From an uncultured Ruficoccus sp. (GTDB lineage: Bacteria; Verrucomicrobiota; Verrucomicrobiia; Opitutales; Cerasicoccaceae), in NCBI GenBank assembly GCA_965140785.1, contig OZ223483.1, positions 1-52,279 on the forward strand: a stretch of 52,279 nt of DNA, given 5' to 3'. Position numbers and translations under genes: made by a program. The notes beneath the pieces were generated by a model that saw only the letters and a list, made by a program, of their open reading frames with translations, did not search any database and was not told the origin of the DNA. The first letter of the stretch is position 1; each line of letters begins with the position of its first letter. Below, piece after piece: positions 33,757-42,123 of the stretch.

Positions 33757-33855
33757 TTTTTCTGGTTCTTAGTTCTTAGTGCTTTGTTCTTGGTTATCAA
33801 ACGACCTGCGACTAATAACTAAGCACAAAGAACCAAGCACGAAGCACCAGAAAAA
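33757..33855. repeat. Inverted arms built of 7-bp tandem units
   Basis: TTCTTAG/TGCTTTG-type units at 33757-33796 mirrored by CAAGCAC/AAAGAAC-type units at 33816-33855. Confidence 0.75.
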
Positions 33856-34887
33856 ATGACTTCTTCGACCAACAAGCTGAACAACCGCAACGTGGTGGCG
33901 GTGGTCTGGGACTTCGACAAGACCCTGACGCCCGGTTACATGCAGGCGCCGATCTTCGAACGCTACGGGATCGACGAGGAGCACTTCTGGCAGGAGGTCA
34001 ACGCCCTGCCAGACATCTACGCCAAGCGCGGCATCACCGTCTCGCGCGAGACCGTTTACCTCAACCACCTGCTCAGCTTCATCAAAAACGGCCCCCTCAA
34101 GGGCCTGCAAAACCGCCACCTGCACGAGCTGGGCGGGAAAATCCCGTTCTTTCCGGGGCTGCCGGCGTTTTTCGGGCAACTGAAGGACTTTGTCACCTCC
34201 AAAGCGGATTACAAAAAGCACGAAATCCGCCTGGAGCACTACATCATTAGCACCGGCCTGGCCGAGATGATCCGCGGCAGCCAGATCGCCGGCGCTGTGG
34301 ACGGGATTTTCGCCTGCGAGCTGATCGAGTGCCCCCTGCCGCCGTACTTCAGCCGCCAGGACGAGCTCCAGATGCAGATGGACTTCGAGATCAGCCAGAT
34401 CGGCGTCATCGTGGACAACACGATCAAGACCCGCTACCTCTTTGAGATCAACAAGGGCTCGAACAAAAACCCGGCCATCAACGTCAACTCCAAGATGGCC
34501 CAGGAAGACCGCCGGGTGCCCTTTACGAACATGATCTACATCGCCGACGGCCCCAGCGACGTGCCCTGCTTCTCCGTCGTGCGCAAGGCCGGAGGCAAGA
34601 CCTTCGCCGTCTACAACCCCGAGAGCGAAGCCGAGTTCGCCCAGAACGACCGCCTCTGCGAGGACGGCCGCGTCCACAACTACGGCCCGGCCGACTACAC
34701 CCCCGGCTCCTCCACTGCCCGCTGGCTGCGCCTGCAGGTAGAGAAAATCTGCGACCGCATCGTCGAGGAACAGGAGGACCTCCTCGCCCGCCGCGTCAAA
34801 CAGCCCCCGCGCCACCTCCACCGCGACGCCGACGGCGACCCCACCCCCGAGCCCGAACCCCAACCCGAGCTGCACCTGGAACAGTAA
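33856..34887 (+). CDS. HAD-superfamily hydrolase
   Basis: Motif I WDFDKT, motif II IISTG, motif III K, motif [10 protein letters not shown]. Confidence 0.85.
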
Positions 34888-34941
34888 GGGTTTCTCTTTA
34901 CAATGTTGATATTTAAATTATTGACCCGACCCCTTCAGGTG

Positions 34942-35418
34942 ATGCTGGGGGTGTTATTATTAATCCCTTGTTTGGGATGCTCATTGAATAAAGGGCATGA
35001 TGATTTAATGACGGTTTCATTGGATGCATATAATGCTGTAGTAAATAACGATTATGGTGATTTTAAGGATATTGCAGGTACGACTCAACTGAGTAGGATG
35101 GATGAAAGGTATGTTCGTTTTTATTTTAATATGATTAGTGATGAGGTTAGCCGATATCCAATTAAGGATGGGGTCAGCCTCGAGGTATCTGAATACAGCG
35201 AGGGCTGGGTGGATGTTTTAAAGATGCGTTATGACAGCGGGGTTTTTTCTGTATTTAATGATGATTGGAAATATTACGAGGTGTTTTATGTTTTTGCTGA
35301 TGAGCGCTCATTTACGCTGACATTTGTGAAGACGAGAACTGATATTTTCTTATTAATACCCATATACAAGAAACCCATGCCTATCGAAGACAAGATAGGG
35401 GGTCAGCCAAAGAGATAA
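34942..35418 (+). CDS. Putative lipoprotein, cassette gene 1 (start uncertain; ORF is open from 34903)
   Basis: Hydrophobic stretch and lipobox-like LGC; AT-rich codons; last codons (GGQPKR*) derive from the repeat. Confidence 0.6.
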   Translation: MLGVLLLIPCLGCSLNKGHDDLMTVSLDAYNAVVNNDYGDFKDIAGTTQLSRMDERYVRFYFNMISDEVSRYPIKDGVSLEVSEYSEGWVDVLKMRYDSGVFSVFNDDWKYYEVFYVFADERSFTLTFVKTRTDIFLLIPIYKKPMPIEDKIGGQPKR

Positions 35419-35422
35419 GGGC

Positions 35423-35494
35423 CAGGTCAATAATTTAAATATTGATTGCAGTCTGACTTGTGTAGTTATTCTATATGATTAACATGACCCCTTC
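35423..35494 (+). repeat. Inter-cassette hairpin spacer, copy 1 (72-bp core)
   Basis: CAGGTCAATAATTTAAATATTGATTGCAGTCYGACTTGTGTAGTTATTCTA-WATK-ATTAACATGACCCCTTC; 3 differences from copy 2. Confidence 0.9.
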
Positions 35495-35522
35495 ATTTAC
35501 CTGACCCCTTCATTTACCCTAA

Positions 35523-35936
35523 ATGAAAAATATATTTATTTATTTGTTTGGTGCATTTATTTTTGTGTTTTATGGTTGTGGGCCAGGTGTTATGGACTCC
35601 TCAAAAGAAATACGCAACGGATACTATTTTTATAGAAACAATTCAATCGATCAATTCATTGCACCTAAAGTTTGGAATGATGATACCCCTATGATTCCAT
35701 CGCGTGTAGTTAGATATGAAGTTGCGGAAAGATATGTTTCAGCAAAAAGAGAGACTATTGCTGTTGGAAGTTCTGGCTCTCGTATCGGTTCCGGCCATTA
35801 TGACTACTGGTTATTGGACACGCAGTCTCCATGCGTCTATGGGCCGTTTACATTTGGTGATCTTGAGAAGAAGATTAATGAAATGAACTTACCTAAATCA
35901 TTAAGTCAGAGGGGGACGAAGGGATCAGGTCAATAA
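35523..35936 (+). CDS. Putative lipoprotein, DUF3997-like, cassette gene 2
   Basis: MKNIFIYLFGAFIFVFYGC signal/lipobox; IPSRVV...YWLLD...VYGPFT pattern (family assignment from memory). Confidence 0.65.
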   Translation: MKNIFIYLFGAFIFVFYGCGPGVMDSSKEIRNGYYFYRNNSIDQFIAPKVWNDDTPMIPSRVVRYEVAERYVSAKRETIAVGSSGSRIGSGHYDYWLLDTQSPCVYGPFTFGDLEKKINEMNLPKSLSQRGTKGSGQ

Positions 35937-35968
35937 CTAAACGTTGCAGGGGGTCAGGCCGAAGAGGT

Positions 35969-36040
35969 CAGGTCAATAATTTAAATATTGATTGCAGTCC
36001 GACTTGTGTAGTTATTCTAAATTATTAACATGACCCCTTC
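35969..36040 (+). repeat. Inter-cassette hairpin spacer, copy 2 (72-bp core; 80-bp palindrome at 35961-36040)
   Basis: Near-identical to 35423-35494; arms GAAGAGGTCAGGTCAATAATTTA and TAAATTATTAACATGACCCCTTC pair at 20 of 23 positions. Confidence 0.9.
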
Positions 36041-36072
36041 GTCTCTTATGACCCCTTCATCTCTTATGCGTT

Positions 36073-36861
36073 ATGAATAAAGAAGATTTTAACATCTATA
36101 ATTCTTTGTACTTTTATAAGATGGACAAGTCCTGCCTCTTCCAGCTTTTAGCGGAAACTGACTACTTGGCGTTCAGAAATATGTGCCTATTAGAGCAACC
36201 AGCTATTTCGTTAATACTTTTTGCAGGACAGCAGACGATTGAAAAGTCTCTGAAGGCGATCATCTTGCTACATGGCGGAAAGACAAACAATTTCGGACAT
36301 GATTTACTAAATCTCTATAATGAAGCGAAGAAACTAGAGCCGAAGTTGCAGAGGCAAAACACGGCGATGTTCGATAAGCTAATAACAGAATTCAATGGTG
36401 CAGAGTTTTCGAGGTATGCATCTTCCGATATTCGTGTTGAAGAGTTACTGCACAAGCGCCTAGACACCTTTTTCATAACGCATCTCAGAAAAGCGTTTTA
36501 TGATGCTTACTACTCGGTAAACGGAAGTATTCGGATTCCCGACAAATTTACCGAAATACTCACCTACGCGAAATGGTTCCCGAACTCGCATCATGCGTTA
36601 ACTTTTGATAATCAATCGTTAGGATTCACGAACCCAGGTCAGATATCGACCATCAGACCAATCAGCTATAAGATAAAACCTGTGATTATTCTGGGCGAGC
36701 AGGAATGCAAGAATCAGAAAGAATTAGAAAAACGACTTGGTATTCGAATTTCAAACACTGAGTTTCAGCAGACATTTCTCTTGGAAGATGAAGAGCAAGA
36801 GGTTCTAGAGTCACCCGATCTTATGAATGAGTTAATTAATAGAAGAAATCAATGTTCATAA
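36073..36861 (+). CDS. HEPN domain protein, cassette gene 3
   Basis: DYLA...QQTIEKSLKA...GHDLLNL...SRY is the classical HEPN pattern, plus a C-terminal extension. Confidence 0.75.
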   Translation: MNKEDFNIYNSLYFYKMDKSCLFQLLAETDYLAFRNMCLLEQPAISLILFAGQQTIEKSLKAIILLHGGKTNNFGHDLLNLYNEAKKLEPKLQRQNTAMFDKLITEFNGAEFSRYASSDIRVEELLHKRLDTFFITHLRKAFYDAYYSVNGSIRIPDKFTEILTYAKWFPNSHHALTFDNQSLGFTNPGQISTIRPISYKIKPVIILGEQECKNQKELEKRLGIRISNTEFQQTFLLEDEEQEVLESPDLMNELINRRNQCS

Positions 36862-36869
36862 CAAGTCGT

Positions 36870-36934
36870 CAAAAGATAAGGGGTCCAAAAGATAAGGGGT
36901 CCAAAAGATAAGGGGGCATCAAAAGATAAGGGGG
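36870..36934 (+). repeat. Four tandem copies of CAAAAGATAAGGGG
   Basis: Copies start at 36870, 36886, 36902 and 36920 and run into the right terminal repeat. Confidence 0.9.
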
Positions 36935-37132
36935 CAGGTCAATAATTTAAATGTTGATTTCAATCCTCGGCTTTCCGCCGAGGCATGCGGGTGGCGAGAT
37001 CTGTCCGCACACTGTTTCCGGGTGCGCTTTACCCATCTGTTCAAGCATGGAAACGACTAAAAGATTTAAAGTGTCGGGCCGGTGTATGGCTGTTAACTGG
37101 GACGCTAACCCGCAGGAGCGGCGCGGTGTGTC

Positions 37133-37148: not shown

Positions 37149-37213
37149 GCACATTTCGGGGCAATCCGGCGAAAACTGCGATTTACCGCCCCGCGGGCGG
37201 GCTGCTAAGCCGT

Positions 37214-37229
37214 TGGCATAGCGGGTGCT
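37214..37229 (+). promoter_or_regulatory. Second candidate sigma54 promoter upstream of gltB
   Basis: TGGCAT-AGCGG-GTGCT with correct GG-N10-GC spacing. Confidence 0.45.
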
Positions 37230-37443
37230 TAAGGAGGCTATAAATAAAAAATTTGCATTTCCGTTCCCGACGCCCAATTTTACTCCGCTCGCGAGGGAAA
37301 GGTGTCTTGCTTCTCCATTCCAGGAATGGCTGAGGGTGGCTCGTACACCCGTTTTCCGCGCGGACCACACTTTTCCGCCTCCCATCTGCCCCGGCAGTGG
37401 GGGAATCTATGACCTCTTAACCCAGAATTACAAAAACACGCGT

Positions 37444-42123
<4,680 letters not shown>

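Follow-up and report, generated by a model that had tools for sequence, protein, structure and literature searches.

REP arms and a RAYT transposase gene at AT-rich gene islands of an uncultured Ruficoccus species

Small AT-rich genes that lie in one orientation between repeated palindromes, in the midst of GC-rich housekeeping DNA, raise the question of what kind of site separates them and which enzyme might act on it. Such an arrangement is present in an uncultured Ruficoccus sp. (GenBank assembly GCA_965140785.1) on contig OZ223483.1, whose full length of 52,279 nucleotides is the window analysed here; it is the entire contig C12 of the source genome (G000; 4.36-Mb assembly in 50 contigs, GC 0.59). 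A HAD-like hydrolase gene (positions 33856-34887) and gltB (37225-42123) bracket an island with a GC content of 0.34-0.44 (about 34950-36900) compared to 0.58-0.72 in its flanks. The island is occupied by three co-oriented open reading frames (ORFs) on the + strand; two imperfect palindromes of ~85 bp separate them and inverted single arms form the ends. An initial annotation of the window had regarded this as an integron-like array of gene cassettes at hairpin sites of another type than attC. Base composition, ORFs, repeats and a shuffle test bear out its description of three co-oriented AT-rich genes with repeated palindromic junctions and inverted arm ends. As to the nature of the sites, we are highly confident that the junctions are doublets (REPINs) of repetitive extragenic palindromic (REP) arms and the island ends single REP arms, that both belong to a system with a REP-associated tyrosine transposase (RAYT), and that they are not attC sites.

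Hairpin junctions and terminal arms of the island

The two junctions have 75 nt in common at 95% identity (35420-35494 and 35966-36040). Junction 1, a degenerate REPIN on the + strand (35415-35498), consists of an arm in one orientation (arm+, 35419-35440), a 34-nt spacer and an arm in the inverse orientation (arm-, 35478-35494). The same order of arm+, 34-nt spacer and arm- is found in junction 2 (35958-36042, + strand), whose arms of 24 nt are 88% complementary and form the best-preserved hairpin of the window. As single-stranded DNA junction 2 folds better than its shuffles, with z values of -3.5 for one strand and -5.1 for the other; junction 1 (z 0.35) and the single arms fold no better than shuffles. 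The left terminal arm (34902-34938, - strand) starts 15-20 nt past the HAD stop codon, reads GAAGGGGTCGGGTCAATAATTTAAAT on the - strand and reaches 31.8 bits with an nhmmer arm profile that was built from 25 arm copies and for which matches were counted at E below 0.01. Its counterpart on the right, a single arm together with the first part of a spacer, lies at 36928-36966 on the + strand (27 bits). Both terminal arms (34909-34936 and 36928-36952) are 92-93% complementary to the junction arms. With up to two mismatches, the 13-mer GGTCAATAATTTA occurs six times in the window at an expectation of 0.25, and none of 100 shuffles reached six. An extra partial copy of the arm (GAAGGGATCAGGTCAATAACTAAA, 35914-35941, + strand, 13.6 bits) contains the stop codon of the second gene. 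Rfam gave nothing at the junctions at E values up to 1, and a promoter and terminator scan found no signal there, promoter-like sites being fewer than in shuffles.

At their ends arrays retain the cassette-side arm and a piece that resembles the adjoining half of the spacer, so that the joining of the two ends of an array or of a cassette would rebuild a junction. In the window the right arm is adjoined by a decayed and frameshifted 5' remnant of a RAYT gene with its upstream region (36953-37110, + strand). This remnant aligns at the DNA level with the upstream regions of the RAYT genes on contigs C43 and C10 of G000 and in the relative G002, and 16 of 39 residues are identical to the RAYT in BLASTP (E 9e-07); past it, homology to the empty site of the relative G001 restarts only near 37205. 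Some arms are also accompanied by stutters, tandem repeats in which 5-9 unique bases are combined with GAAGGGGTCA. In the window two copies of a 17-nt unit, CTGACCCCTTCATTTAC, are found on that side of arm- of junction 1 which faces the cassette (35472-35511), two copies of an 18-nt unit, ATGACCCCTTCRTCTCTT, are found at 36030-36065, and four units of 16-18 nt, AAAAGATAAGGGGKMM, lead into the right arm (36858-36933), all on the + strand.

The RAYT gene, its arms and the genes between them

Only two Y1_Tnp genes are present in G000 (C10:480129-481055 and C43:224708-225634), and each of them encodes a 308-aa protein (Pfam Y1_Tnp 39.4 bits, cut-off 23). Both genes are flanked by the same arms as the genes of the window: at both loci a GC-rich segment of ~970 bp between arm+ and arm- replaces the 34-nt spacer, and the two segments share 99% identity over a stretch that extends roughly from one arm to the other. 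The initial annotation had named a Y1/RAYT transposase or a tyrosine recombinase as candidates, and a search for such a gene between the same arms, which it had suggested, was positive for Y1/RAYT at two other places in the genome; these flanking arms support a tie of the single-strand hairpin sites to a Y1/RAYT enzyme and not to an integron integrase. Its statement that no enzyme is present in the window needs a correction, as the decayed RAYT remnant lies next to the right arm. The HUH motif (HYH; H62 and H64) and the catalytic tyrosine (GRY; Y104) of the enzyme are invariant in 10 aligned homologues. Its best NCBIfam match is NF047646 (REP_Tyr_transpos), and the IS200 model is reached with 18.7 bits at a cut-off of 55. 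A conserved C-terminal extension of about 170 aa is present, and a Pfam search with the C-terminal 173 aa gave noise only. The C43 copy (L062:5709-6632) has a cysteine directly before the catalytic tyrosine, where nine of 10 aligned homologues have arginine; judged from this exchange it may be inactive.

Junctions of 185 bp are present in the relative G003, and ahead of arm- they have preserved ~125 nt from the 5' region of RAYT. These junctions, together with the right arm of the window that is followed by the RAYT remnant, indicate that the junctions are internal-deletion derivatives of an arm-RAYT-arm unit. Across the genomes the presence of RAYT and the number of arms go together: 27 arms are found in G000 with two full-length copies, 6 in G002 with one full-length copy and a stub, 11 in G003 with a partial gene and 4 in G008 with a pseudogene, and the genomes that have no RAYT gene contain 5 (G001), 2 (G007) and 0 arms (G004). 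A C-terminal fragment of a tyrosine recombinase (C10:481106-481288, domain positions 111-168) starts ~20 nt beyond the right-hand arm of the RAYT copy on C10; the AT-rich genes at C10:481631-483446 come after the region of this fragment (C10:481100-481534).

The repeat that the initial annotation had proposed to search for occurs at other loci and in relatives. In G000 the 27 arms are distributed over contigs C10, C12, C39, C43 and C48 and include about 10 doublets, each within AT-rich islands. The arm motif was detected in six of 41 relatives searched and its reversed control in none. The association of arms with AT-rich cassettes is strict and was seen in G000, in three out of four further species of the genus that were searched and in two sister genera, with an arm sequence that is nearly identical across the three genera. 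For 47 of 53 arms the GC content is below 0.50 in the 300 nt on the GAAGGGG side, and just 10% of the genome windows of G000 are so AT-rich. Among solitary arms, for which no partner was detected (n=27), the AT-richer DNA lies on the GAAGGGG side in 24 cases, on the reverse side in one, and is similar on both sides in two; the binomial figure for this count overstates the case, as the genomes are kin. Stutters accompany the cassette side of 16 of the 53 arms compared to one of 45 arms of classical REPINs, and they are present at the more distant locus L032 as well. The best array is that of contig C43, which reads on a single strand: junction, 212-aa gene, junction, 110-aa gene, arm+, RAYT, arm-, 88-aa gene, junction, 127-aa gene, arm+; its cassettes have a GC content of 0.26-0.40 versus 0.58 for the RAYT gene. 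In most cases the arms come 0-170 nt past the stop codon of a cassette. Chance or an assembly artefact was considered as a cause of the repeats and was ruled out because arms recur in six genomes, at seven or more loci, as well as in metagenomes of independent origin.

Some arms can also be read as coding sequence. Arm- is readable as ATG ACC CCT TC, and several toxin-stub ORFs thus begin with MTPS; arm+ is readable as ..KGSCQ followed by a TAA stop, which ends some cassette ORFs. Examples are G000 C10:294942, C39:143668 and C43:224064, and contig C83 of G002 (L049:9317-9994). At the C43 and C39 arrays, a comparison with empty sites met variable flanks with a multi-copy element similar to insertion sequences (IS). 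An element of this type immediately adjoins the C43 array on its right side (G000 C43:226792-227616; L062:7893-8625), and many copies of it are present in G001-G004.

The interval between the HAD gene and gltB was compared across related species, another check that the initial annotation had named, and was found empty or with other content. In contrast to the three cassettes and RAYT remnant of G000, this interval measures 363 bp in G001, with an arm-like remnant directly after the HAD stop codon. In G002 a single cassette of another kind, with a weak Imm74 match, is enclosed by the orthologous left arm and by a similar arm on the right, and 3.6 kb of GC-rich DNA come after it; G003 has a 1-kb GC-rich gene and no arms, and G004 has about 316 bp and no arm. 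The orthologous left arm and the arm-like remnant in relatives indicate that the HAD-side arm predates these species and that the content on its cassette side has changed. The content thus differs at one orthologous site, and we consider the arms as probable points of content exchange. A transposon of the DDE type with inverted ends was rejected as an explanation because no target duplication is present at the single cassette of G002.

Cassette 1 of the window (34945-35418, + strand, alternative start 34903) is a small lipoprotein-like gene with a lipobox (LGC) and a GC content of about 0.38; it has no family match, and in a protein atlas it matched only unnamed 'lipoprotein family' clusters. 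A DUF3997 lipoprotein-like gene (32 bits, cut-off 25) represents cassette 2 (35523-35936, + strand). Cassette 3 (36073-36861, + strand) codes for a HEPN-domain protein of 262 aa (29 bits, cut-off 22), for which just two homologues were found among 5.8 billion proteins and whose gene was not found in any other of 251 genomes of the same order. NCBIfam had no match for any of the three window proteins, and PADLOC matched none of seven cassette proteins. Of 25 proteins encoded in sister arrays, seven have a Pfam family and 18 have none; the families are Imm30, Imm22 (DUF4284), DUF4274, Sel1 and RHS with DUF6973, and Imm74 was found below the cut-off. The DUF4274 cassette gene adjoins a stub of an AHH nuclease, itself below the cut-off. 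Sister arrays carry orphan stubs of polymorphic toxins, immunity genes and the variable tails of RHS toxins. By analogy with them, the three genes of the window are most likely orphans of an immunity type.

AT-rich tails are present on two RHS-repeat proteins, one with at least 2204 aa on C10 of G000 and one with 1622 aa at L037, whose RAYT is 37% identical; in both cases a small ORF and then an arm come next. G008 carries two modules of an RHS tail plus a lipoprotein, each ended by arm+. At L032 four gene units, each followed by a cognate arm+, lie between ribonucleotide reductase and RAYT genes: a SMODS plus SLATT_4 pair as the first, then a Rieske/FMN reductase, a CAP protein and an unknown. 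In four assemblies (L023, L024, L032 and L040) the RAYT homologue is located downstream of ribonucleotide reductase; the interval between the two amounts to about 0.5 kb in L023 and L024 and contains a NACHT gene in L040. Only the 3' arm is present in G008 and L032, and the distant clade represented by L032 shows the same design of arm-terminated genes.

Two further features were noted beside the island. The gap between prfA and the HAD gene (33757-33855) contains a long inverted repeat with 41-nt arms that are 83% complementary and 17 nt apart; Rfam gave only sub-threshold matches to miRNA-like hairpins, and four weak partial matches are present elsewhere in the genome. Upstream of gltB, TGGCATAGCGGGTGC (37214-37228) resembles a sigma-54-type -24/-12 motif and is part of a block, GGCATAGCG.GTGCTTAA...TATAAATAAAAAATTTGCAT, that is conserved in G001 and G003.

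The same arm also occurs outside such islands. The exact 23-mer of the arm was found in 27 metagenome stretches and had no match in viral contigs. In the metagenome organism it forms compact palindromes in DNA with a GC content of 0.64-0.72, beside a RAYT of 54-55% identity (arm-flanked locus L084). These palindromes lie among the genes for fumarase, arginyl-tRNA synthetase, MTHFR, RecD2 and the like, and 13 of 15 flanking proteins belong to ordinary enzyme, helicase or transporter families. The initial annotation had seen a new kind of site in the junctions, a view that we abandon: the sites are REPs and REPINs of the RAYT and, in another organism, ordinary dispersed REPINs. Homologues of the RAYT with 37-84% identity were located at 32 loci in Verrucomicrobiota assemblies, mostly of Opitutales, and 16 of 27 loci examined have an inverted repeat of at least 15 nt around the gene, mostly GGGGTCAGGCCG..TTGTT. 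The REP-RAYT system is native to Opitutales-type Verrucomicrobiota. A 3.6-kb metagenome contig (L076, GC 0.45) has arm+ followed by a reverse-strand fragment of a RAYT C-terminus (aa 236-299, 64% identity) and AT-rich DNA, and may be another cassette array.

Possible mechanism and competing explanations

The explanation that we favour is one in which REP-RAYT arms frame exchangeable AT-rich genes of immunity type; taken as a whole, we give it an even chance of being correct. A cut within or beside the REPIN spacer would free or admit an arm-gene-arm unit, and such a cut would leave half sites at the ends of an array and whole REPINs between neighbouring genes. The natural candidate for this reaction would be an enzyme of the Y1/HUH type, which cleaves single strands next to hairpins and joins them again. 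The kind of enzyme, a single-strand nuclease-ligase, makes it quite possible, if somewhat short of probable, that RAYT catalyses the cuts and joins. The capture of genes and the stacking of cassettes, which the initial annotation had suggested, is a plausible but hypothetical activity of RAYT. That RAYT has been recruited in these Verrucomicrobiota as a cassette-capturing enzyme appears rather unlikely to us at present; it would then correspond to the integron integrase, but with HUH chemistry on single strands, and would cut at REP arms so as to acquire, stack and swap toxin-tail and immunity genes used in conflicts between bacteria.

Several observations weigh against the favoured explanation. 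The enzyme stays with 67.4 bits under the NF047646 cut-off of 80. The same REPINs are free of cassettes in the metagenome organism, and most loci of RAYT homologues have ordinary neighbours. The RAYT gene extends from arm+ to arm- and the cassettes from arm- to arm+, so that cassettes are inside-out relative to the sole unit seen duplicated. Arms persist in G001 and G007, neither of which has a RAYT gene, and just 10 of 147 AT-rich islands of G000 touch an arm, none of the large ones among them. Both junctions of the window have identical arm mismatches, and junction spacers are array-specific. This points to local copying of each junction as a whole unit and not to its import with a cassette, as would be the case for an attC site. 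Thirty-five segments (GC 0.33-0.47) share nothing by DNA or protein except for one assembly duplicate, and no cassette was found at two places. The three window genes have no match to any immunity or defence family. The read data comprise one study with two runs in the form of fragmentary contigs, of which no listed piece covers the whole stretch; the sole listed joint lies within the HAD gene, ends left loose at arms connect to other loci that have arms, and no RNA data set with the stretch was listed. No circular form or read joint in support of stacking was found in these fragmentary contigs, which are uninformative on circles or excision.

A serious rival, possible although on balance doubtful, is that the REPINs are passengers which are copied locally into the gaps of toxin-immunity islands with a fast turnover. 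The content would then be changed by host recombination, either by RecA on the arms of 25-35 nt or by breakage and repair of hairpins, and RAYT would move only REPINs. The array-specific junction variants, with the window junctions as whole-unit copies of each other, agree with this assumption, as does the sole recent duplication, which comprises arm+, RAYT and arm- and so has the geometry of a REPIN. Identical REPINs being classical intergenic elements elsewhere, and arms remaining in two genomes devoid of RAYT, point in the same direction. Random loss of REPIN halves, however, would not yield the ratio of 24 to 1 by which solitary arms lie on the cassette side. Nor would a simple bias towards AT-rich sequence explain why arms are restricted to the 10 of 147 islands mentioned above and missing from the large ones; in the GC-rich metagenome organism REPINs insert into GC-rich DNA. 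The excess of stutters at cassette-side arms over classical ones is likewise not in line with passengers.

It is improbable that the arms are not recombination sites at all and represent elements of 3' gene ends, such as terminators or mRNA-stabilising or regulatory hairpins, that travel with cassettes from a shared donor pool. Their usual position shortly past the cassette stop codon, the presence of the 3' arm alone in G008 and L032 and the near identity of the arm across three genera would agree with such a role. The junctions, however, are devoid of terminator- or promoter-like signals, single arms fold no better than shuffles, the RAYT gene itself is flanked by the same arms, and the left arm at the HAD site was retained while the adjoining content differs. 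We consider a true integron-type system, in which a tyrosine recombinase acts in trans on attC-like sites, as very improbable, even though small co-oriented cassettes with imperfect palindromes of attC-like length between them resemble one. G000 has 14 Phage_integrase (PF00589) matches, but none of them is in or next to an array, with the exception of the C-terminal fragment beside one RAYT copy. The arm ends of the junctions show neither GTTRRRY nor RYYYAAC boxes on inspection by eye, and the derivation of the junctions from the RAYT unit by deletion is also at variance with attC sites.

Comparison with known systems

For the combination of REP and RAYT the term 'REPtron' has reportedly been used by Nunvar in 2010 and by Bertels and Rainey in 2011. 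The loci described here share with REP/REPIN-RAYT systems (PMC5581495; bioRxiv 10.1101/2024.07.17.603846) a Y1/HUH gene between inverted REP arms, hairpin-forming arm doublets of 60-190 bp, a low copy number of the gene, its synteny in relatives and a decrease of the repeats where the gene has been lost. They differ from these systems in that all copies in this genus are situated within or at small foreign islands of AT-rich DNA, where single genes are framed by them, in that about 27 arms and not hundreds are present per genome, and in the stutters beside the arms. The C-terminal extension of ~170 aa, the score below the NCBIfam cut-off for RAYTs and the presence of two gene copies of 99% identity are further differences. 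With respect to a single gene copy, G000 deviates by these two copies, and a ribonucleotide reductase-RAYT neighbourhood is common to L023, L024, L032 and L040. Membership in the REP/REPIN-RAYT group is supported by four of five features.

Transposition of IS200/IS605 elements proceeds by a single-strand peel-and-paste mechanism with subterminal hairpins in direct orientation. A Y1 HUH catalytic domain and hairpins in single-stranded DNA are common to these elements and the loci of this study, but here the ends are inverted and not direct, the gene is not multiplied like an IS, and the enzyme remains below the cut-off of the IS200 model. Integrons, with IntI, attC arrays and clusters of attC sites lacking an integrase (CALINs), resemble our arrays by single-gene cassettes in one orientation, imperfect palindromes of similar length and many cassettes that have no relatives. 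In contrast to integrons, there is no IntI, R and L boxes are absent, the sites within an array are near-identical, whereas integron sites are cassette-specific, and inverted half sites bound the arrays. GC-rich RHS cores, AT-rich variable tails, orphan modules of a tail plus an immunity gene and a nearby transposase-like gene are features that recall the Rhs elements of E. coli, which have AT-rich core extensions and the IS-like element H-rpt; in the present case each module is delimited by REPINs and the associated element is a RAYT. A search of full-text literature, with subscription journals outside its reach, found no publication in which gene cassettes, Rhs loci or arrays of immunity genes are connected with RAYT or REPINs, and the one paper that contains both RAYT and Rhs treats them separately.

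In the way they work the loci are much like the recombinase-associated acquired interbacterial defence clusters (rAID-1) of Bacteroidales and polyimmunity loci (bioRxiv 10.1101/471110; PMC3482391). These are co-oriented arrays of orphan immunity-type genes, as the loci described here probably are as well. Shared features are a GC content well under that of the host, repeats between the genes, a content that varies between relatives, and a gene for an enzyme that breaks and joins DNA within the array or next to it. The conserved XerD-family recombinase at the 5' end of rAID-1 is absent from our loci. A Y1/HUH RAYT takes the place of the XerD-family tyrosine recombinase, the repeats are REPINs, and the arrays are short (1-4 genes) and spread over seven or more loci. 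Verrucomicrobiota is not among the phyla listed for extended polyimmunity loci in PMC3482391.

The function of RAYTs and REPINs for their hosts is termed unknown in bioRxiv 10.1101/2024.07.17.603846. In the genomes studied here the repeats are few and located at the edges of exchangeable toxin-immunity genes, with the gene of the enzyme within the arrays, which makes a specific function testable. If RAYT captures cassettes, RAYT/REPIN systems would gain a concrete cellular function; if it plays no part in cassette movement, the REPINs would still mark the breakpoints of hypervariable islands. Compared with the known systems, the loci appear to represent a separate origin of the orphan-immunity array known from Bacteroidales, with another enzyme chemistry and in a phylum that is not listed for extended arrays.

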